Virus record (IMG/VR): IMGVR_UViG_2648501150_000043
Coordinates: 1-20,165 of that record
Source of the DNA: a virus
Lineage: Duplodnaviria > Heunggongvirae > Uroviricota > Caudoviricetes
Strand: one strand, 5' to 3'
DNA: 20,165 nt
Each line of letters starts with the position of its first letter. The first letter of the stretch is position 1. The notes under the pieces are model-generated. The model was given only the letters and a program-made list of their open reading frames with translations, made no database searches and was not told the origin of the DNA. Positions 145 through 13,876 of the stretch are shown here, piece after piece. The translations under genes and the position numbers were made by a program.

Positions 145-1131
145 TTAAACAACGCGCGCTTCTGTTTCCAGAATCGCATCGGTTTCACGGATAGGAATGC
201 CACGGAAAGTGGTCCACCATTCGCCTTCTGTCTCTTTGACGGACAGAGCCAGAGAGGCTTTATCCAGAGATTGCAGGTCGAGAGCCTGGGCAACGGTGCG
301 GTTCATGTAGAAAGCCGCACGGCCCATCTTCAGGTTAGGAACGCGGTGCAGAGCTTTAACCATCTGAGTGACGATGTTTGCAGCAGAGGCAGGAACAGAC
401 AGATCGCTTACATCGATGTTGGCGATACGAACAACGTAGCGCCAGTCACGAAGAGCCAGGCCGTTATCCCACTTATAGTGAGTGCGGTAGCCTTCATACT
501 GGCCACCATTGGCATCTTTAAGGGTCTGCTGGCCCTTATCTTCCATATGAAGGCCAGCCTTTTGACCTTTCGGGAAGATGCCGTGAACAGTGTTTTCACC
601 CCATACAACCAGCCAGATAGAAGTGTTATCTGTGCCAGTGCCACCAGCGTCGATAATGTTCTGGCCGTTACCAGCTGATTTGCTGGAATAACGAGACGCC
701 AGCCCCATAAACTGCTGCGGGTTAACACTGGTATCACCATAGAACAGGGTCTGAGCCATCTGCTGGTTCATAGCTTCAATGAATGCGCGGTCTTCAGACA
801 GACGGAATTCAGCGGTGTTGCCGTTCAGGTCAGCCAGAGACTTATCGATTTCGGCATAGGTTTCCAGCATTCCGCAGGAGTCTGTTACCTGTACAGTGGT
901 GGATTTGCTTGGCTGCACGCCATAGTTCAGCAGACGCCATGTTGCTGACGGCAGGCCTGAGCGGATAGTGGTACGGTGACCTGTAGGAAGGTTACCTTCA
1001 ACGATCAGCATATCCTGCAGGATAGGGTTGGTTTGTGCGAGAAGCTCGATAATCTTATCGACTTTCCCGTTCGGGTCGATGCGCTTGCCCCAGTCTGCCA
1101 GCGTCAGCGCAGTTAAGCCTTTAACAGCCAT
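145..1131 (-). CDS. Major capsid protein (328 aa)
   Basis: 328-aa ORF with GAGG RBS 7 nt upstream of ATG; position immediately after scaffold-like gene and downstream of portal; size and composition typical of a phage coat protein; followed by a stem-loop. Family assignment by recall, not by search. Confidence 0.75.
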   Translation of the reverse strand: MAVKGLTALTLADWGKRIDPNGKVDKIIELLAQTNPILQDMLIVEGNLPTGHRTTIRSGLPSATWRLLNYGVQPSKSTTVQVTDSCGMLETYAEIDKSLADLNGNTAEFRLSEDRAFIEAMNQQMAQTLFYGDTSVNPQQFMGLASRYSSKSAGNGQNIIDAGGTGTDNTSIWLVVWGENTVHGIFPKGQKAGLHMEDKGQQTLKDANGGQYEGYRTHYKWDNGLALRDWRYVVRIANIDVSDLSVPASAANIVTQMVKALHRVPNLKMGRAAFYMNRTVAQALDLQSLDKASLALSVKETEGEWWTTFRGIPIRETDAILETEARVV

Positions 1132-2416: not shown

Positions 2417-2712
2417 TTGTCTTTCTCCTGAGACTCAGCGGCCATTTTCAGATACTGTTCAGGACAGTGCGCCATGACGCGCTGAAACAATGCCAGTGCC
2501 AGGTTGCGCTGCCCTTCGTTGAATGCAGTTAAGTGCGAATCACCAGCGAAGCATGGTGAGAACACCTTTCCCCTCTCCAGCATCGACCAGATAACGCGGC
2601 GGCCTTGCTCGCTACCCATAACGAACTTGATGTCGTCGATATCACGCTGAGCCAGAAGTTGCTGTTTGGCGTCAAGCTCTGCTTTGCGTCCTTCGTCGTC
2701 GATATCCATCAT
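2413..2712 (-). CDS. Hypothetical small acidic head-module protein (99 aa)
   Basis: ORF whose ATG overlaps the portal stop codon (ATGA coupling at 2709-2712); no recognisable family. Confidence 0.55.
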   Translation of the reverse strand: MMDIDDEGRKAELDAKQQLLAQRDIDDIKFVMGSEQGRRVIWSMLERGKVFSPCFAGDSHLTAFNEGQRNLALALFQRVMAHCPEQYLKMAAESQEKDK

Positions 2713-4379
2713 TGCTGCGGTGCTCCTGCTGCATTAGCGATAGCAGTTAATGCGCTCGGGTCGCTGGTCTGCGTTTCGCTGAGAGTCTTGGCCCCCTGCG
2801 CTGCCGCCTGACCCATAGCCATTGCCTGTGCCGCCTGAGCCTGTTTAGCTCGCTCTTCACGAATACCCTGTACCTGCTCCTGCGGAACGATGACGGTTGG
2901 CGATACGCCTGACATTTCAGAGAACGCGTCGATAGCCTGATCCACATCAAGCTTGTCGAGCGCTTCAGGTTTGAACTGCGCCAGTTGCCCGATAAATCCA
3001 ACTGTCTGCGACAGGCTGGTGAGGCCGATAGATTTCTGAGCCTGAGCCATCACAGAGATGTACTCGATACGCAGCGGCATACCCTGAAGAACGTCAGGAG
3101 GTTCTGGCAACATGTTCTTGCGGGCCATGATTGAGAACACGCGATCGATAAGCGGGTTAAGCGCTTCGTCATTCAGGCGCTCAAGCACCGGGCCAAGCAT
3201 CAGCAGTTTCTCTTCCTTCATCTCGATCACCGCTTCCACCGGCATAGATCGGGTGTTGATGTTTTGCAGCATCATGAAGAGGTCAACGAAGTAGGCGCTG
3301 TTGATGGTCTGCCTAGTGTCCTGAATGTCAGCCAGCAGGTCGGCGGTATTCGGGTTTACCAGGTATGCAGGTTTGAAACCATCCTGACCGGTCAACACGT
3401 CGAGGTACGTCACATCGCCAGGCAACAGGGAAACCCGCTGATTCTTGAGCGATGTCGGGGCAACCATCGGCGGGTTAGTGGCTTTATCGATCAACTGAGC
3501 TTTGCGCTTCTGCTCAACCTGAAGGGCTTTAACCTGACCGAGTGCCAGCATTCCAGGACAGGATGAGGCGTAAACGTCTTCGCCATTCACTTCCCAGCGC
3601 GGCGCCAGAATAGGGAATTCATCAAATCCGGATTCACGCAGCAGCTTGTCAGCGTCACCGCCAGTTTCGAAATAGACAGAGCGGTAAGGCTTGTTCTTGC
3701 TGTCCATCTTACCGCTGTCGCGGTTGACGTTAGGCGTGATGCAGTGGTTAACCTCCACCCACGTTTCATACGTGCCATTTTCCCACATGCCTTTTACGGA
3801 TGTACTGACGTTATCCAGACCGAATTCCTGCACCATCTGGCGCACGGTCATGGAGAACTGGCGAATGCAGGTGTCTACGCTACCGCGCGGACTGTTAGCC
3901 AGGTAGTAACTGCCAATAGGGAAAGGCATTGTGCGGATCACGTCCTGGTCATCTTCCAGAACAGCCATAGCGCCGGTGCCGAAAGTACCCAGACTTGCGT
4001 ACATAACAGGCAGTGACTGATACAAATTCGATTTGTTGAACACTTCGTTCATGCGGCGCTGCACGACTTCCAGCCAGATTTTCACCGGGCCATAGTCCAT
4101 CATGTCAGGGTCAGGCGTTGCCAGTTTGAACCACGGTCGTGCCGGACTGGTGATGCCTGACATCATGCCGCTGGACAGAATGCGCTGAGCCATTGAGCCA
4201 GTGGGATCAACAATCTTGGTGTTACGGCGATCATCACGGTTTACATCAGATGTCAGAAAGCGGGAGCCACGCGGATTGATGAAGTCACTCAGATCACGCC
4301 AGTGCGATTCGAACGATGTGCGCTCATTCTTCAGCTGCGCAAGTTGCTTCAGCAGGCGCTCTTTTTCGGTTTCCGCCAT
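2709..4379 (-). CDS. Portal (head-to-tail connector) protein, 556 aa
   Basis: Long ORF of typical portal size downstream of the large terminase, upstream of scaffold and capsid; GGAG-type RBS; sequence recalls podovirus-type connector proteins (recall only). Confidence 0.85.
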   Translation of the reverse strand: MAETEKERLLKQLAQLKNERTSFESHWRDLSDFINPRGSRFLTSDVNRDDRRNTKIVDPTGSMAQRILSSGMMSGITSPARPWFKLATPDPDMMDYGPVKIWLEVVQRRMNEVFNKSNLYQSLPVMYASLGTFGTGAMAVLEDDQDVIRTMPFPIGSYYLANSPRGSVDTCIRQFSMTVRQMVQEFGLDNVSTSVKGMWENGTYETWVEVNHCITPNVNRDSGKMDSKNKPYRSVYFETGGDADKLLRESGFDEFPILAPRWEVNGEDVYASSCPGMLALGQVKALQVEQKRKAQLIDKATNPPMVAPTSLKNQRVSLLPGDVTYLDVLTGQDGFKPAYLVNPNTADLLADIQDTRQTINSAYFVDLFMMLQNINTRSMPVEAVIEMKEEKLLMLGPVLERLNDEALNPLIDRVFSIMARKNMLPEPPDVLQGMPLRIEYISVMAQAQKSIGLTSLSQTVGFIGQLAQFKPEALDKLDVDQAIDAFSEMSGVSPTVIVPQEQVQGIREERAKQAQAAQAMAMGQAAAQGAKTLSETQTSDPSALTAIANAAGAPQQ

Positions 4380-4393
4380 CTCTGCCTACTCCG

Positions 4394-4600
4394 TTACTGA
4401 CCAAGCAGCGTTTTACCGCTGGTGTTTGCGGTTGAGGTGTCACCCTGAGCACCAGTCAGCAGAGTGGAACTGCGTCCTGCTGCTGCACGGCGGCGGCGTT
4501 CTTCGTCGTCACGAGAACTGACAACTGCTGCATCCTGCTCCTGTGGCGCAGCCTGTACTTCTGGCGCTGCTGGCACTGATGGCTTGCTGCCGATACACAT
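4394..4600 (-). CDS. Hypothetical small protein (68 aa), Ala/Pro/Arg-rich low complexity
   Basis: ORF ending 14 nt before portal start; GGAG 10 nt upstream of ATG; low-complexity composition makes coding status uncertain. Confidence 0.35.
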   Translation of the reverse strand: MCIGSKPSVPAAPEVQAAPQEQDAAVVSSRDDEERRRRAAAGRSSTLLTGAQGDTSTANTSGKTLLGQ

Positions 4601-4689
4601 AGCAATAGCTCCGTACGCAATTAAATTATTACCAATTTAACCACATATGATTTATTTAGCGTAGGCTATTGACACTTATAACATCAGAT

Positions 4690-4706
4690 ATTACCTTTTA
4701 GGTAAT
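4690..4706. promoter_or_regulatory. Perfect 17-bp palindrome ATTACC-TTTTA-GGTAAT (operator-like site, isolated copy upstream of portal operon)
   Basis: Exact inverted repeat read in sequence; same motif family as the sites flanking the repressor gene; TTGACA at 4670-4675 lies just upstream. Confidence 0.5.
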
Positions 4707-5308
4707 TGATGTTGATGTAACGCAGTTGATGTACGGCATATGGCACATGTGCCGCAGCGGTCCGGATGGGTTCCATTGATGCTACTTCCCCAGCCGGGTA
4801 GCCGGAATGTGCAAGCCAGTGTCAGGTAAGCACGGACAGACGATTCACCATCGTGGCGATACGGTGTGACACCTCGGAAGAGACGAGGATGCAACGATGA
4901 GAGCATTGGGGTGACCGGTTAATCCCATGACGCTAACCGATACAGGCGCAGTGCTCTCAATGTTGTGGTTAATGGCGGGGCTGACCGTCAAACGGTTGAG
5001 AAAAGATAAGCAGGCGAAACGTTCTAAGCGAGCATACGGACTGATCGAACGCGGATGGAACGGGCGGTTACGATATTGAAACACCGCGCCACTGAGCTGG
5101 AGTTCAGCACCAGCCACCACAAACGAATCACGTTAGGACCGTGGTAAACCGTAGTGCCAATGTAATTGCTGTGTGACTTTGTCGGTGCCAGATTCATCCC
5201 GAGTTGCCCCTCGCTGGTACCGACACTTTTTTTACAGCAGAACGCCATTGCGATGACGTTGCGCTGTAAACCCGTAACTGCCATGGAAGGCACCCTTACT
5301 TCCAGTTC
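4707..5308 (+). other. About 600-bp region without ORFs of 60 aa or more on the plus strand, rich in local inverted repeats; candidate long structured leader or ncRNA, ending in intrinsic terminator
   Basis: Six-frame track shows no plus-strand ORF here; the three minus-strand ORFs are in three different frames with implausible composition; region bounded by promoter-like TTGACA (4670) and a strong terminator (5309-5332). Confidence 0.25.
4927..5079 (+). CDS. Possible 50-aa small protein MTLTDTGAVLSMLWLMAGLTVKRLRKDKQAKRSKRAYGLIERGWNGRLRY (hydrophobic N-terminus, strongly basic C-terminus)
   Basis: Found by manual translation (below ORF-track size cut-off); weak RBS (GGGGTG about 13 nt upstream); speculative. 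Confidence 0.2.
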   Translation: MTLTDTGAVLSMLWLMAGLTVKRLRKDKQAKRSKRAYGLIERGWNGRLRY

Positions 5309-5332
5309 GCCCACTTCGGTGGGCATTTTTTT
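5309..5332 (+). terminator. Rho-independent terminator: GCCCAC-TTCG-GTGGGC hairpin followed by ATTTTTTT
   Basis: Perfect 6-bp GC-rich stem with 4-nt loop and 7-T run on plus strand; the reverse strand lacks a T-run, so it is unidirectional. Confidence 0.65.
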
Positions 5333-5343
5333 AAGGTGAGATT

Positions 5344-5775
5344 ATGAGCAAAGACCTGTTTGACATGAAGCGCCTTCCGGTTGACCGGGTTGCTGCGAGA
5401 GTTGTTGGTAAGGGCGTGGATTGGACACCAAACAAAGTTATCCAGACAGGAGACAGCGATCTGCCGTTGCCAGTGTTTTCTGTGTATAACATTAAAAACC
5501 CGCAACAACGGCGAGAAGTGAAAGCAATGATCGGAAGAAAGCGCGGGAGATTGACAATAATTGGCCTTGCTGTCACGCAAGGAGCAAAAAATAAAGGTGC
5601 TCGCTATGTTGCTCGTTGTGTTTGCGGGATTTATACGTATCGCCGAGCAAAAAATTTCAAGAATAATTCCGATGAGTTTGATGGCTGCGAACGATGCAGG
5701 GAGTTGCTGTTTTTGAAACGAGATGAGGTCCATCGCAGAACTGGAAAATGGGTAGAATGGAAAGATTTGATATAA
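5344..5775 (+). CDS. Hypothetical basic protein with C-terminal Cys4 zinc-ribbon (C-x-C ... C-x2-C), 143 aa
   Basis: AAGGTGAG RBS 4 nt before ATG, immediately after a terminator; own terminator downstream; opposite strand to the surrounding late operon; Cys pairs CVCG and CERC about 21 residues apart. Confidence 0.65.
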   Translation: MSKDLFDMKRLPVDRVAARVVGKGVDWTPNKVIQTGDSDLPLPVFSVYNIKNPQQRREVKAMIGRKRGRLTIIGLAVTQGAKNKGARYVARCVCGIYTYRRAKNFKNNSDEFDGCERCRELLFLKRDEVHRRTGKWVEWKDLI

Positions 5776-5778
5776 CGC

Positions 5779-5792
5779 TGTGACATGTCACA
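5779..5792. promoter_or_regulatory. 14-bp perfect palindrome TGTGACATGTCACA
   Basis: Exact palindrome 4 nt after the 143-aa gene stop; a 12-bp copy GTGACATGTCAC recurs at 8296-8307, and GGCACATGTGCC at 4742-4753 shares the ACATGT core. Confidence 0.35.
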
Positions 5793-5795
5793 TTC

Positions 5796-5821
5796 AGCCC
5801 GCCGATGCGCGGGCTTTTTTG
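5796..5821 (+). terminator. Rho-independent terminator: AGCCCGC-CGATGC-GCGGGCT hairpin followed by TTTTTT
   Basis: 7-bp GC stem plus 6-T run on plus strand only. Confidence 0.65.
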
Positions 5822-5862
5822 TATGGCATAATCACTCATTCGATTATCACAGCGAGTGGACC

Positions 5863-6144
5863 ATGAAAATTAAACAAAAAATTGTTAATACCTTTGTGAA
5901 CTCAACCCATGAGTGGAACATGGCCATGCACAATGCCATTGAAAGAAAGGTATTTGAAGGATTTGAAAGCACATTCCCTAATGGATTAAAAGACCCTGCT
6001 GAGACCGGTGAAAGAATAGAGTCAATGCGTGCATTCTATTATCAGCGCATGATGAATACCGCATCACTTTTGCTAACTGGTGCGTCACTAATCATTGCAT
6101 TAGTTGCCTTGGTTGTAGCTCTGATATCAATTCACTATGCATAG
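5863..6144 (+). CDS. Hypothetical small membrane-anchored protein (93 aa) with C-terminal transmembrane helix; the track ORF starts earlier at 5785
   Basis: Hydrophobic stretch SLLLTGASLIIALVALVVALISI at C-terminus; visibly AT-rich codon usage compared with neighbours; 3' end overlaps terL 3' end convergently by 10 bp. Confidence 0.5.
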   Translation: MKIKQKIVNTFVNSTHEWNMAMHNAIERKVFEGFESTFPNGLKDPAETGERIESMRAFYYQRMMNTASLLLTGASLIIALVALVVALISIHYA

Positions 6145-7610
6145 GGGTCGTATTCTGTCAACGCCTTGCCCTGCTGGCTTTGCTGTCCTGGTATATTCAT
6201 ACGTTTCGACACCGGGAAAGCAAACGTCAGCAGCAGCGCATCACCCTTGCCAGGAGAACGGCCTAACCGCTCTTTGATATCTTCCTTCGGCTCAATAACT
6301 ATCTTGCCGTCCACCCTGACTTTGTACTCAGCCGCCGACAGGTCGTCAGCCGTTTCCTGGTCATCCAGTGCGCCACCAATTTTCAGCCACGTTTTGCAGC
6401 TGTTGAACATCTCGCCGCGCTTGTTGAGCATCTGCGGATCGGTAGAGCCGCCGCCGAAAGGTATCAGTTGCCAGGAACGGCCCCAGCCATCACCGATTGA
6501 CTTCAGCCCGGTACCATACCCGAAGTCGATGAATACAGCGTCAGCCTGGTACTGGTCTTCAAAATCAGCGATACGCTTTGCCATAATCAGATCATCGGTT
6601 GTCTTATTGCCGGTCCATAGCACTTTGCTGTGAAGCCCCTGGCGCAGGTATATCACCGCGTCATCCACACCGGAATACGCCGGGTCAACACCGATAATCA
6701 CCGGAGCGTGCGCCACCTGCCCGGCTGTCACCACGCGCTTCATTGCGGAATCAGTCAGGCCTGTCGGGATAAACTGGAGTTCAGACGCATCAGGGAAGAT
6801 CCCGCGTACACGAACTTTCACGAAGTCGCTATCCTCGCCGTAGTCATCAACCCACTTCTGCAACTGCTGCTTGTTGGTGCCTTCCACGGTGCGGCTGTCT
6901 ATCTGCGCGCACTTCCAGCGGTGTTTGTATTTGCGGAAGCATTCACGGAAACGCCCGGTGTTACGCGTAGGGTTCCCGAACGCCACCCAGATGATTTCGG
7001 TGTCTTCGTCCGTCAGCGCACCCTCGGCAACTTCCCACACCAGATCGGCAATGTTGGACGCTTCATCGAATACAACGATGATGCGCTTGCGTTCGTTGTG
7101 CAGACCGGCGAACGCCTCGGTGTTGTGTTCAGACCATGGAATAGCATCAGCGCGCCAGCGTTTGTCGTGACCGGGATCGTTGCTGTACATCGCGGTGGCG
7201 GTGCAGGTGAACCACTCTTTCGTGATAGCCAGGTTCGACCATTTGATGATTTCAGGCCATGTTTTGGTGCGCAGCTGGTTGTCGGTGTTGGCGGTCACCA
7301 CCACCTTGCAGTCTTCACAGGTAGACATGCCCCAGTTGATGAGCATCGAGATGAACGCAGATTTACCGATACCGTGGCCGGATGCGCGGGCCAACATCAG
7401 CGGCTGGTGACGCGTTGCTGGATTCTGCAGGTGATCGCGTATCTCGCGGAATGCGTCTGCCTGCCATTTTCGCGGGCCGGTGGCATGCGCCAGTTCTGTC
7501 CCCTCTTCGCCCCACGGAAACGCATACAGCGAATAGCCCAGCGGGTCATATGTGAACGATGCAATATCCTCGACAAGCTGCTCTTCCGGCGACATGGCTG
7601 CGGCTGTCAT
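6135..7610 (-). CDS. terL: Terminase large subunit (491 aa)
   Basis: Walker-A-like GHGIGKS near N-terminus, nuclease-like acidic C-terminal half, size, ATGA overlap with upstream small terminase gene. Confidence 0.9.
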   Translation of the reverse strand: MTAAAMSPEEQLVEDIASFTYDPLGYSLYAFPWGEEGTELAHATGPRKWQADAFREIRDHLQNPATRHQPLMLARASGHGIGKSAFISMLINWGMSTCEDCKVVVTANTDNQLRTKTWPEIIKWSNLAITKEWFTCTATAMYSNDPGHDKRWRADAIPWSEHNTEAFAGLHNERKRIIVVFDEASNIADLVWEVAEGALTDEDTEIIWVAFGNPTRNTGRFRECFRKYKHRWKCAQIDSRTVEGTNKQQLQKWVDDYGEDSDFVKVRVRGIFPDASELQFIPTGLTDSAMKRVVTAGQVAHAPVIIGVDPAYSGVDDAVIYLRQGLHSKVLWTGNKTTDDLIMAKRIADFEDQYQADAVFIDFGYGTGLKSIGDGWGRSWQLIPFGGGSTDPQMLNKRGEMFNSCKTWLKIGGALDDQETADDLSAAEYKVRVDGKIVIEPKEDIKERLGRSPGKGDALLLTFAFPVSKRMNIPGQQSQQGKALTEYDPYA

Positions 7611-8272: not shown

Positions 8273-8303
8273 CTTTGCAATTTATTGTCTCTATCGTGAC
8301 ATG

Positions 8304-8642
8304 TCACACCGCTAGTTTAGTATCATGCCAGCCACGCGTCACCCAGCATGCCGAATCACCATCACACGGACACGACTCAACTGGCAGCGCATCGCCACAT
8401 TTCCCGCAACGGTTAGAGCTGATTGACTTGATGCGCCCACGAACCCGCGCATCATCCTGGCGTATAAGCAACGCGATGTACTCGTTCATGTCATACGGCG
8501 CCCGACCAGGGCGACGGGCGGCGCAGTTTCTCGCCAGCATCTCCAGTTCCTGCTCGTCTAGTTGCAATTCCAGCTTGCGGTTACCAGATTCAGCCTGGCG
8601 GGCACGCTGCGCTGCTTTGCGCTCTGCTGCGGATTTAGCCAT
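8304..8642 (-). CDS. Hypothetical protein with basic N-terminus and C-terminal Cys-rich zinc-ribbon (CGKCG ... CPCDGDSAC), about 112 aa from ATG 8642
   Basis: ORF with internal ATG at 8642 preferred over 8690; last gene before terminase; stop codon overlaps GTGACATGTCAC palindrome. Confidence 0.5.
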   Translation of the reverse strand: MAKSAAERKAAQRARQAESGNRKLELQLDEQELEMLARNCAARRPGRAPYDMNEYIALLIRQDDARVRGRIKSISSNRCGKCGDALPVESCPCDGDSACWVTRGWHDTKLAV

Positions 8643-10178: not shown

Positions 10179-10643
10179 TTATTTGATACCGATCCCGTGC
10201 CTGGCGATTAACAGCGCATCAGCTATGGCCTGACCTTTCGCTTTTGCATCCAGCGCCCTGAGTTCCGGGTAGAGCTGAATTGCTCTGCTGCGTGCCGCGT
10301 CCTTGTCACTTCCGATGAGACCGGCTGACTTCTTCCAGGCCTGCGGCGTTACCAGCGTGTACGGAATGTTGAGACCCTGCAGGATCCCCTCCGCTACCCC
10401 AGCGGCATGACCGAACGTGAACATGCTCGCCGTTCCCTGCCCTGGCATTGCGCCCACCTGCTCGAGGTATGCGTGCGTAATTCCGTACTTACGCAGCCAT
10501 GCAGCCACCGCTGCGCCGTTGACTCTGGACTTTGTCCCAACCTTGATGGTCGGCATTGCCAGGTGGTCGATGTATCCGCCCTGCTCAGTTATCAGGACCA
10601 GAGATCCGCTGCATCCTGGGTCAATCCCTAATACTGCCGCCAT
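10179..10643 (-). CDS. RuvC-like Holliday junction resolvase (154 aa)
   Basis: N-terminal LGIDPG, central EQV, C-terminal DAADALLIA..H motifs matching RuvC-family catalytic residues (recall). Confidence 0.8.
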   Translation of the reverse strand: MAAVLGIDPGCSGSLVLITEQGGYIDHLAMPTIKVGTKSRVNGAAVAAWLRKYGITHAYLEQVGAMPGQGTASMFTFGHAAGVAEGILQGLNIPYTLVTPQAWKKSAGLIGSDKDAARSRAIQLYPELRALDAKAKGQAIADALLIARHGIGIK

Positions 10644-12677: not shown

Positions 12678-12911
12678 TTATCGGTCGTAGAAGAAGAGCA
12701 CTAATTCAGGTTTAGACTTTGTCCATTCGCGGGAGCGACATGCTTTAAACAGCCCGTCCATCAGTCGCTTACCCGGCATCTTGCGGCGCCCGGTCAGGTG
12801 AGTCTGGATGTAATGACTGGTGGTTCCGGCTTCATCTGCAAATGCTTCACGCTCATCAGGAGACAGTCCCAGCCAGTGCTTTTTGAAATCAAATTTTTTT
12901 TCGTCACTCAT
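12678..12911 (-). CDS. Cro/cII-like HTH transcriptional regulator (77 aa), first gene of the rightward early operon
   Basis: Divergent from repressor gene across operator cluster; HTH-like segment AFADEAGTTSHYIQTHLTG; size typical of Cro. Confidence 0.55.
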   Translation of the reverse strand: MSDEKKFDFKKHWLGLSPDEREAFADEAGTTSHYIQTHLTGRRKMPGKRLMDGLFKACRSREWTKSKPELVLFFYDR

Positions 12912-12945
12912 ATTTTGCTTATCTCAGCCTGTCTATTCATATCTG

Positions 12946-13013
12946 AATTATTACCTTTCTGGTGAAAAAATCAATGATTATTACCGTTATGGTAACTTTA
13001 CCTTTATGGTAAT
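12946..13013. promoter_or_regulatory. OR-like control region: three ATTACC-N5-GGTAAT-type sites (12950-12966 imperfect, 12980-12996, 12997-13013) overlapping a minus-strand promoter (-35 TTGATT at 12974-12969, 17-bp spacer, -10 ATAATT at 12951-12946)
   Basis: Palindromes and hexamers read from sequence in the divergent intergenic region between Cro-like and cI-like genes. Confidence 0.6.
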
Positions 13014-13066
13014 ATTCATTTAAATTTAGTCAGTTAGGTAACATTAAATGGACAAATACAATAGCT

Positions 13067-13663
13067 ATGAAAAGTATTTATGACATAAGACGCAAAAACC
13101 TTAACGAAATCATTCGCCGGGATTTCGATGATACCCAGTTGCGCTTTGCCGAACGTGTGAAGCGTTCGCAGAACCTGGTCAACAGGTGGTGCACTGGCAT
13201 CAAAAACATCGGACCAAATGCAGCGCGTATCATTGAGGAAGCAGCGCGCAAAGAAAAGTTCTGGCTTGATGTCGATCACGAACTGGACGCGGTACAGGCT
13301 GATATCTTTATTCCGGCCACTGATGATGGCGAATGGACTGTAGAGAAGCAGGCTGCAGCCACGCTCAATGCCTGGATGAGAAAGAACACGGAAATGACAT
13401 CAGAAAAGAAAGTTGCTGTAGCAGCTGGTATTGGCCCGGCCACAGTTAACCGGATTATGAAAGCGGAAGTCAGCACAACTATCGGCGTTCTTTCCTCCCT
13501 GGCGCGCGCGTTCGGGCATGAAGCATACGAGATGATTATTCCCGTCGGCGCTCCTGGTGTTATCGACTACGACCACAGGTTGTATGCAGCTCTGCCTCAG
13601 GAAGAGAAAAACAAGATCACCTCATTCATTAACTTCGTGTTTGAGCAGAACAAAAGCAAGTAA
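13067..13663 (+). CDS. cI-like prophage repressor with two HTH-type regions and no LexA/S24 autocleavage domain (198 aa)
   Basis: Flanked on both sides by triplets of the same palindrome; divergent from Cro-like gene; HTH-like segments at N-terminus and around residues 120-150; no Ala-Gly/Ser-Lys protease signature seen; possible -10 TACAAT at 13057-13062 only 4 nt before ATG (leaderless-like). Confidence 0.65.
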   Translation: MKSIYDIRRKNLNEIIRRDFDDTQLRFAERVKRSQNLVNRWCTGIKNIGPNAARIIEEAARKEKFWLDVDHELDAVQADIFIPATDDGEWTVEKQAAATLNAWMRKNTEMTSEKKVAVAAGIGPATVNRIMKAEVSTTIGVLSSLARAFGHEAYEMIIPVGAPGVIDYDHRLYAALPQEEKNKITSFINFVFEQNKSK

Positions 13664-13730: not shown

Positions 13731-13876
13731 CGGTAATTTTTTTCTCGTCATACCTATTGACACAATCACTTTTTGATCTGATTATTACCCAAAAGGTAAT
13801 ACATGAGCGCATCGCTCAGGCAGAAACCACCACTTCGTGGTTTTCCTGCATCTCCAGGTATTACCAAAATGGTAAT
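13731..13876. promoter_or_regulatory. OL-like control region: three perfect ATTACC-N5-GGTAAT sites (13731-13747, 13794-13810, 13860-13876) with a plus-strand promoter (-35 TTGACA 13767-13772, 17-bp spacer, -10 GATTAT 13790-13795) overlapping the middle site
   Basis: Exact palindromes and consensus -35 read from sequence; regular 63-66 bp centre spacing. Confidence 0.6.

Follow-up and report, generated by a model that had tools for sequence, protein, structure and literature searches.

A predicted tRNA-like RNA in a modular accessory slot between the terminase and portal genes of an epsilon15-like phage

Why does a temperate phage carry, in the midst of its structural genes, a stretch of DNA that is read in the opposite direction? 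The question is raised by positions 4601-6144 of IMG/VR virus record IMGVR_UViG_2648501150_000043, of which positions 1 to 20,165 (20,165 nucleotides, called the window throughout) were analyzed and assigned to an epsilon15-like (Uetakevirus) temperate phage or prophage. This plus-strand stretch, here called the island, runs counter to the structural genes and on the same strand as the repressor gene, and is enclosed by the minus-strand portal side on its left and the minus-strand terL gene on its right. A preliminary description, made from the letters of the window, had seen in it an inserted, autonomous cassette of the moron type, with an operator-like palindrome, two terminators, two protein genes and about 600 bp devoid of a long open reading frame (ORF). 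Every feature that it had listed was recovered at or near the place given for it, but the supposedly empty 600 bp was found to hold the most conserved part of the island, a predicted gene for a structured tRNA-like RNA. We consider it probable that the island is an accessory slot between the terS-terL and gp3-portal-head units, composed of four exchangeable cassettes and hosting this RNA. Judged by sequence comparison, the RNA is the best-supported functional element of the island and its most constrained component.

The part of the island that concerns the RNA is laid out as follows.

4707-4961, plus strand: leader region, kept only among epsilon15-like phages
4962-5123, plus strand: core of the tRNA-like RNA, about 165 nt, running from GTTGTGG to CCACAA (covariance-model match 4960-5133)
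4964-4969 with 5116-5121, plus strand: P1, acceptor-like closing stem
4973-4978 with 4985-4990, plus strand: P2, D-arm-like hairpin directly after P1, loop GGCUGA
Between P2 and P6, plus strand: central module of about 100 nt, helices P3-P5
5096-5100 with 5110-5114, plus strand: P6, T-arm-like hairpin abutting the 3' strand of P1, loop AGTTCAGCA (in RNA letters AGUUCAGCA)
5124-5234, plus strand: RNA trailer, AATCACGTTAGGACCGTGG..., together with terminator T1; semi-conserved in all contexts
5180-5191 and 5214-5225, then a T-run, to 5234, plus strand: arms of T1

In an alignment, a block of about 215 bp (approximately 4948-5176) was near-identical in the window and in two relatives that are otherwise about 80% identical. 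More than 45 IMG/VR contigs, as well as GenBank entry LN889992, contained the core with 0-5 differences, next to unrelated upstream flanks, and wherever the downstream flank was read it consisted of the semi-conserved trailer, then a hairpin with compensatory stem changes, then a T-run. RNAalifold applied to 28 variants gave six helices, P1-P6. In this 28-sequence alignment 99.5% of cells were paired and five pairs were changed on both sides, with 0 of 500 shuffles reaching the observed value, whereas the same structure with its partners slid along gave a pairing of just 24-58%. A covariance model, R1, was built from the 28-sequence alignment, and its one match in the window (4960-5133, 212.9 bits) is a match by construction, the window being among the inputs of the model. 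R1 also retrieved divergent members that had not been used in building it, in which the P2 and P6 stems were changed on both sides and the loops were constant, and a 213-nt homologue in the slot of a Kluyvera prophage, with four P2 and two P6 pairs double-changed and the loops unchanged. In total the model matched 76 RNAs of 97-222 nt in 75 sources (the window and 74 fetched loci). In the alignment of these, 98.6% of cells were paired, 22 pairs were double-changed and 0 of 500 shuffles reached the observed value, the pairing counts being inflated by the fitting of the alignment to the model; P1, P2 and P6 were anchored there by invariant flanking motifs. This comparative evidence shows the existence of an RNA family and its predicted structure.

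The double changes also bear on the possibility that the element works as DNA, be it as a recombination, integration or protein-binding site or as a small inverted-repeat mobile element. The inverted repeats at its termini (GTTGTGGT...ACCACAAC) and the sharp, cassette-like break of homology at the ends would suit such a role, but the covariation includes G-U intermediates, which are meaningful only in RNA. Moreover, the orientation of the element relative to its neighbours is constant, a terminator follows wherever the downstream flank was read, and the leader and trailer are common to a true tRNA gene. We judge a DNA-level role to be highly improbable.

A small protein was likewise considered as the product. 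ORFs of 50-100 amino acids (aa) are present on both strands within 4690-5340, and their reading frames are not conserved. The candidates are a plus-strand ORF of 50 aa (or 35 aa) at 4927-5079, whose 50-aa product would have a hydrophobic N-terminus followed by a basic tail, and a minus-strand ORF. Against this, the start and N-terminal part of the product lie outside the conserved block, and most variants have a TGA stop just before the internal ATG. The divergent copy in LN889992.1 carries 1-nt indels, and its differences from the window avoid third codon positions, falling mostly at the first and second positions of the open frame. On the evidence of this copy the protein-coding reading of the region was rejected, and we give a small-protein gene almost no credence.

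The RNA occupies a position at which relatives have tRNA or tRNA-like genes. (Loci that must be told apart are given by L numbers; L002 is E. coli E2348/69 and L015 is LN889992.1.) In L004 this position holds a tRNA-Arg(UCU), and in L002 and L014 it holds a 113-115-nt gene annotated by NCBI as "pseudogenic tRNA-Gly". The true tRNA-Arg of L004 shares with the RNA element its leader (AGTGCTCT...), its trailer (AATCACG...TTAGGACCGTG...) and the placement of its acceptor stem, which argues that the element is a cassette in a tRNA slot. The leader was 97% identical to that of L002 and L003 and 79-88% identical to that of L006-L009, and it contains a hairpin in which 4892-4908 pairs with 4949-4965, with compensatory variants in other contexts. 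A functionless, decaying remnant of the relatives' tRNA gene would account for the tRNA-Arg or annotated pseudogenic tRNA-Gly at this position and for the failure of ARAGORN and Rfam to find a tRNA in the window. It would not account for an element that is near-invariant in dozens of phages and in three unrelated contexts, whose helices are maintained by compensatory changes and whose single scaffold bears at least 32 types of module; a pseudogene is in our view very unlikely. The RNAs of L002 (3354-3466) and L014 (1398-1512) are themselves cloverleaf-like and 113-115 nt long; their D-arm and T-arm are normal, the anticodon loop is oversized and the extra arm is long. They share acceptor sequence, leader and trailer with the window RNA, and R1 gives no match to them. 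Instead of being dead genes, they may represent a second type of cassette derived from tRNA.

Searches with established models did not recognize the element. ARAGORN reported no tRNA or transfer-messenger RNA (tmRNA) at the element in the window and 13 loci, the true tRNAs of L004 and L097 being found by the same tools, and Rfam 15 gave the element no match in the window up to an expect value (E) of 10 or in 15 loci at gathering scores. A tRNA, in the sense of a cloverleaf with an anticodon arm (RF00005), was rejected for want of an ARAGORN or Rfam match. So was a tmRNA, whose models likewise gave no match and whose G3-U70 pair is missing, the acceptor-like stem having U-A or G-C. A histidine-tRNA-like acceptor (G-1:C73, then CCA) was dropped, as the 3' tail is not kept across the family. 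A C4/CI antisense immunity RNA was also tried and set aside, there being no Rfam match and a complementarity to the window at the level of chance. The RNA was not described in the literature searched on epsilon15 regulation, prophage tRNA-like RNAs, Pas small RNAs and scaffold strings; the catalogue of PMC10690425 (about 10,000 candidate viral structured RNAs) could contain it. The RNA family is thus unrecognized by Rfam 15 and by tRNA finders and was not found in the searchable literature.

Across the family, the scaffold has a 5' segment GUUGUGGU-GAAUG and a 3' ACCACA that completes the closing stem; between these lie two hairpins, first one of 6 bp (loop GGCUGA) and then one of 5 bp (loop AG(A/U)UCAGCA), separated by the variable centre. 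The window carries all of these motifs, except for U in place of G in GAAUG. The 5' motif by itself (GTTGTGGTNAATG-N4-GGCTGA-N4-CA) was present in more than 120 viral contigs among the matches listed. The central modules, in contrast to the fixed scaffold, are of at least 32 types among 70 RNAs and range from 23 to 148 nt, and the same types occur in different genomic settings. Three settings were seen: the terL/gp3 slot of epsilon15-like phages; a place just downstream of a cI-type (helix-turn-helix, HTH, plus S24) repressor gene, on the same strand; and a place 1.4-2.5 kb downstream of ninG, again on the same strand. The orientation of the RNA relative to neighbouring genes was constant. Two different scaffold RNAs may share one locus, as in the terL/gp3 slot of L031 (3957-4130 and 4347-4488) and in L097, where they stand in tandem (49-170 and 240-368) before three true tRNAs (500-747). 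The 165-nt subtype of the window was missing from 5,426 complete E. coli genomes, and its core motif was found in one of 185,579 species-representative genomes. So widespread a family, with a fixed scaffold, at least 32 interchangeable modules and three accessory hot spots, is not ordinary.

Some members of the family deserve mention in their own right. In L119 (7838-8019) and L087 (4898-5081) the central module holds the canonical tRNA T-arm sequence GGCAGGTTCGATTCCTGC, so that a tRNA fragment is seemingly nested in the scaffold. The RNA adjacent to cI is usually followed by a 167-aa protein without a Pfam match (L018, 7787-8290) or by a DUF2303 protein (L016, 8935-9705). In LN889992.1, entitled 'Pseudomonas phage 15b', a record that is unannotated and has no host entry, positions 2972-4180 contain a homologue of lambda NinG together with a copy, 82% identical, of the enterobacterial RNA element.

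We also considered, as a broader and rather unlikely proposition, that the RNAs form a class of 'programmable' tRNA-like RNAs, in which a tRNA-elbow scaffold would carry a hypervariable specificity module. As cassettes that move in temperate enterobacterial phages among the classic moron sites, namely those at terL/portal and downstream of cI and of ninG, they would be determinants of immunity, defence or counter-defence.

Comparison with known RNAs places the element near, and apart from, several systems. Phage tRNA genes include the tRNA cluster of T4, which also yields the stable non-tRNA RNAs called species 1 and 2. The window RNA resembles these in sitting in a tRNA slot with the leader and trailer of a tRNA-Arg, in having acceptor-, D- and T-like parts and in standing once in a row with three tRNAs, but it has no anticodon arm, carries a variable insert of 23-148 nt, matches no tRNA model and has no conserved CCA. 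RNase P excises the immunity RNAs C4 of P1/P7 and CI of P4 (the Rfam C4 family), which work by means of variable loops. By analogy with these, the window RNA is a small structured RNA of a temperate phage, in a family often located in the immunity region, with a conserved frame and variable parts that possibly set specificity; it differs in lacking an Rfam match and a complementary target in the window and in its size and fold. Both tmRNA and the bacterial Y RNA-like YrlA combine a non-tRNA body with a tRNA-like acceptor/T-arm module, as would be the case here, but the window RNA has neither an ARAGORN or Rfam match nor G3-U70. A five-codon frame, GCA GGC GAA ACG TTC TAA (AGETF-stop), is present at 5012-5029 with an A-rich stretch upstream, as with tmRNA resume codons. 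Its variation is mostly synonymous and the stop is kept (TAA/TAG), on too few variable sites to draw a conclusion; we regard the frame as a weak hint or a curiosity.

The second part of the answer concerns the place in which the RNA is found. The island and its flanks match the Salmonella phages epsilon15, PAT1 and SPN1S and also prophages in 548 of 5,426 complete E. coli genomes. The slot was examined in epsilon15 (record AY150271.2), E. coli E2348/69, SEC470, ET846, Salmonella virus PAT1 and Enterobacter and Kluyvera prophages. Its borders in the window are two minus-strand genes.

4394-4600, minus strand: ORF of a gp3-like 68-aa gene (phrog_831 match, E 6e-34), left border of the slot
6135-7610, minus strand: ORF of terL, right border of the slot; epsilon15 and others have its homologue annotated as terminase large subunit

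The gp3-like gene adjoins the portal gene in epsilon15 and all relatives examined and is the first gene of the portal/head unit. The same slot layout, with different cargo, was present in every epsilon15-like relative examined, epsilon15 included. Pairwise comparison of the relatives revealed a mosaic in which the control end and the terminators are kept and the cargo is swapped: the gp3/operator end (4301-4708) was kept at 76-99%, and the block of terminator T2 (5230-5349) and that of terminator T3 (5770-5820) were kept almost everywhere. The protein cargo was the 143-aa zinc-ribbon gene of the window, a Phage_gp49_66 gene, a DUF7739 gene, one of several genes without a Pfam match, or none. 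Among the relatives compared, the 143-aa gene was limited to the window, L002, L005 and L006, and Phage_gp49_66 was the cargo of epsilon15 and many E. coli. The 93-aa gene of the window was shared with L006-L013 and missing from L001-L005. The terL/gp3 region of epsilon15 and of other Uetakevirus phages is homologous to that of the window, with the same position, orientation, operator, T2, T3 block and a single cargo gene on the opposite strand; epsilon15 differs in being without the RNA cassette and the 143-aa and 93-aa genes and in having the Phage_gp49_66 gene and about 210 bp with an annotated RNase III site.

The comparison of relatives for presence or absence of the island, which the preliminary description had proposed, thus found a slot at every terL/portal junction examined, with its protein cargo present, replaced or missing. 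The view of the island as an insertion has to be given up, as every relative examined, epsilon15 among them, has the slot together with its promoter/operator end and its terminators. By the same comparison, the island is an ancestral modular accessory slot with a control end predicted to be tied to the immunity operator; as first described it is an ordinary, though hypervariable, epsilon15-like feature. The four cassettes of the slot would be these.

Cassette 1, control end: a TTGACA-17-TACCTT candidate promoter whose -10 would lie within a copy of the immunity operator
Cassette 2, RNA: leader hairpin, tRNA-like RNA of about 165 nt, trailer and T1, at the site of a tRNA-Arg(UCU) or 113-nt tRNA-like gene in relatives
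Cassette 3: T2, ribosome-binding site (RBS), 143-aa zinc-ribbon gene and T3
Cassette 4: the putatively membrane-anchored 93-aa gene set against the end of terL

The control end holds the following elements.

4669-4674, plus strand: TTGACA, candidate -35
4669-4697, plus strand: candidate promoter TTGACA-17-TACCTT (-10 at 4692-4697), as read from the sequence
4690-4706: operator palindrome ATTACCTTTTAGGTAAT, a perfect match to ATTACC-N5-GGTAAT that overlaps the candidate -10

TTGACA is invariant in relatives of about 80% identity. TACCTT matches three of six consensus positions and hence went unreported by a consensus sigma-70 scan of 4300-6400, which gave no significant promoter (1 found versus 2.1 expected). 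The sole match of that scan, TTGACA-16-CATAGT at 6134-6161 on the minus strand, lies at the 3' end of terL, is directed into the island on the strand antisense to the 93-aa gene and is no more than chance would give. The palindrome class ATTACC-N5-GGTAAT had 13 matches in the window versus 0.29 expected, three or four of them clustered in the cro/repressor switch (12950-13013) and others upstream of terS and early genes, and the site homologous to 4690-4706 is annotated as repressor-binding in the epsilon15 record. The 4690-4706 site is predicted to be a copy of the phage immunity operator. As the candidate -10 is weak and inside the operator, the operator-binding protein should shut off this promoter. 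A similar arrangement, TTGACA-17-GATTAT running into an operator, precedes plus-strand genes at 13756-13800. The claim that the island is an autonomous cassette expressed in the prophage is thus doubtful for its promoter-proximal unit, whose sole plausible promoter has its -10 within the immunity operator.

Behind the RNA, the transcription unit is divided by further terminators.

5231-5270, plus strand: hairpin
5305-5324 (stem), T-run to 5332, plus strand: T2, directly abutting the RBS of the 143-aa gene
5779-5792: palindrome TGTGACATGTCACA, 14 bp
5796-5815 (stem) and T-run, to 5821, plus strand: T3
5515-5499, minus strand: weak terminator-like site

The two strong plus-strand terminators of the preliminary description, T2 and T3, were confirmed and are kept in relatives, but a third terminator-like hairpin, T1 (5180-5225), had been overlooked. 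The T2 block was 94-97% kept in epsilon15, L004 and others, with compensatory variants of its stem (CCCAC/GTGGG and CCCGG/CCGGG). The 14-bp palindrome had also been correctly placed after the 143-aa gene, and the block that it forms with T3 was 87-90% kept in all relatives, whatever their cargo. That the terminators act on the plus strand alone held for the three strong ones, which are unidirectional, although a weak minus-strand terminator-like site was also found. Minus-strand transcription from terL could therefore cross the island. There is no space for a promoter between T2 and the start of the 143-aa gene, and, with T2 abutting its RBS, this gene would be expressed only through read-through of T1 and T2. 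A possible extended -10, TGGCATAAT, was read from the sequence at 5824-5832 on the plus strand ahead of the 93-aa gene.

Two terminators and no promoter between the RNA and the RBS of the 143-aa gene are what would be expected of a cis-acting leader, in which the RNA, as an antiterminator or attenuator, controls read-through of T1 and T2 into that gene. However, the same RNA with its own terminator precedes unrelated genes elsewhere (the 167-aa gene or DUF2303) or, in L008, no such cargo. It also occurs in tandem within a tRNA cluster, and T2 is kept in epsilon15, which is without the RNA. We consider a cis-acting leader unlikely.

The palindrome ahead of T3 belongs to an ACATGT-centred class with three matches in the window versus 0.08 expected.

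4742-4753: GGCACATGTGCC, in the leader region, found once
5780-5791: GTGACATGTCAC, first of two copies
8296-8307: GTGACATGTCAC, second exact copy (at 8296), upstream of terS

Two of these three palindromes immediately precede intrinsic terminators: one precedes T3, on the plus strand, and the other the pre-terS terminator, on the minus strand. The class may be a candidate binding site for some regulator, going by its enrichment.

The two protein genes of the island are the following.

5344-5775, plus strand: 143-aa zinc-ribbon gene, RBS AAGGTGA; Cys92, Cys94, Cys115 and Cys118 conserved
5863-6144, plus strand: 93-aa gene, convergent with terL, overlapping its stop by 10 bp; length kept in homologues

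The 143-aa gene was as the preliminary description had it, with a strong RBS (AAGGTGA) and a Cys4 zinc-ribbon of four conserved cysteines. The statement that neither protein resembles a nameable family failed for the 143-aa protein, which matches phrog_18493 (E 1e-61), and stood for the 93-aa protein, for which no family or fold match was found. The 143-aa protein has 23 close homologues, and a profile search with it reached 9,516 cluster representatives (50% identity) at E <=0.001, mostly of 125-150 aa. Some family proteins are large and contain as many as 11 tandem zinc-ribbon modules, and one carries a fused HTH_3 domain. None of ten scanned hits had a Pfam model over the zinc-ribbon module, and ten clusters that were looked up had no informative name; going by the members scanned, the protein represents a very large protein family without a Pfam model. 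Its structural model (predicted local distance difference test, pLDDT, 77.6) had, in a Foldseek search of viral structures, a sole weak and partial resemblance to the N-terminal modules of AP2/HNH homing endonucleases. Residues 52-109 resemble the N-terminal part of phrog_374, an HNH endonuclease (E 9e-6). An HNH homing endonuclease was nevertheless rejected, the match being partial and N-terminal and no Pfam HNH match being found. A small protein that binds nucleic acids and has no nuclease domain is a plausible description of the 143-aa product. Its distant homologues sit among early genes and operons of other temperate phages.

The 93-aa gene was confirmed as AT-rich (GC 0.41-0.43), as probably encoding a membrane protein and as overlapping the 3' end of terL by 10 bp. 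Its model (pLDDT 88.7) has two long helices, the second of which is predicted to end in a hydrophobic membrane anchor; Foldseek found no match to this model among viral structures. The same position and 10-bp overlap were seen in Enterobacter and Kluyvera prophages, and even metagenomic relatives of 45% identity, which carry no other cargo, have the gene beside terL and convergent with it. As so stable a neighbour of terL it is atypical of the sporadic moron that it had been taken for. A holin-like toxin (PF16935) was rejected for the 93-aa protein, whose score of 18.1 bits falls short of the Pfam gathering threshold of 23.3 and whose match is confined to the membrane helix. Pfam, NCBIfam and PADLOC returned nothing significant for either protein, and neither matched the PADLOC anti-phage defence models at E up to 1.

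The moron reading of the preliminary description fared unevenly. The island is counter-oriented and non-structural, has its own terminators and a lower GC in its protein part (0.41-0.47 across the two protein genes, 5300-6200, versus 0.52-0.60 in portal and terL), and varies in cargo among relatives, but it is not a phage-specific insertion. The GC of the RNA part (0.52-0.55) is like that of the flanking structural genes. Lambdoid morons, such as lambda rexAB downstream of cI and the morons of HK97, resemble the island in being accessory genes with their own terminators and deviating base composition that occupy fixed hot spots and differ between relatives. They differ from it in that the main conserved cargo here would be an RNA, and in that the operator overlaps the candidate promoter and expression in the prophage is not evident. 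In the sense of differing between relatives, the protein cargo genes behave like morons.

The classic form of the moron idea would be a prophage-expressed island whose proteins give superinfection exclusion, defence or conversion, its non-coding part being a regulatory leader. The cargo genes have a lower GC, their own terminators and a varying distribution among relatives, the island is oriented like the repressor gene, the same RNA elsewhere lies downstream of cI on the cI strand (a typical position for expression in the lysogen), and the 93-aa product is predicted to be a small membrane protein. However, the -10 of the sole promoter candidate is in the immunity operator, and no room is left for a promoter between T2 and the start of the 143-aa gene. 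There is no PADLOC match, and the most conserved element is the RNA, not the proteins. Finally, the 93-aa gene stays next to terL in relatives of as little as 45% identity, and distant homologues of the 143-aa gene lie in early operons. A protein moron is therefore possible but, to our mind, doubtful.

We return to the accessory slot that hosts a tRNA-like RNA. On this reading the scaffold of the RNA would be tRNA-like, with a long variable central module in place of the anticodon region. The RNA would be transcribed on the plus strand, end at T1, be cut out or trimmed like a tRNA and be stable. It would act in trans through its variable module, with the scaffold serving processing, stability or a common partner and the module conferring specificity, and its role would be accessory, in phage-host or phage-phage interactions, rather than one in virion assembly. 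The protein genes would be reached by partial read-through of T1 and T2, and the 93-aa gene may also use its own weak extended -10. Were RNAs of this kind made and acting through their modules, phage accessory functions, usually explained by protein morons and true tRNAs, would gain a further layer based on RNA, and it would be clear why annotation pipelines call "pseudogenic tRNAs" at the terL/gp3 locus.

Several observations weigh against this reading, beside the inflated pairing counts of the 76-sequence alignment. Support for P3-P5 is confined to the window's own, little-varying subtype, and recent spread, instead of constraint, could be part of the reason for the near-identity of this 165-nt subtype. 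The single-sequence fold of the core was no more stable than that of shuffled sequence (z -0.54); the same was true of single-sequence folds of 4700-5340 on both strands. The RNA and its ends are predictions from sequence comparison. The Rfam tRNA and tmRNA models give the element no score, so that tRNA-like processing is an analogy only, and the encoded 3' tail is variable, with no conserved CCA across the family. Antisense targets in the 20-kb window were at chance level (6 ten-mers versus 6 expected), the candidate promoter is weak in its -10 and was unreported by the consensus scan, and neither protein has a function assigned from family, fold or defence searches.

The surroundings of the slot are those of an epsilon15-like genome.

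145-1131, minus strand: major capsid gene
2709-4379, minus strand: portal gene
12678-12911, minus strand: cro-like gene
13067-13663, plus strand: HTH repressor gene, divergent from the cro-like gene across 12911-13067

The terS gene is also on the minus strand, and to the right of it are early genes, namely a RuvC-like gene and lambda P-like and DnaT/O-like replication genes. The 13 operator palindromes of the window start at 1859, 4690, 8202, 8220, 10646, 10708, 12608, 12950, 12980, 12997, 13721, 13784 and 13860. Several of them end 1-5 nt before a start codon, so that the right half doubles as an RBS; examples are at terS (about 8201), at the gene ending at 10643, at the gene at 1856 and at 13803. 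Such overlaps suggest that one protein directly controls many units or that an RNA hairpin masks the RBS.

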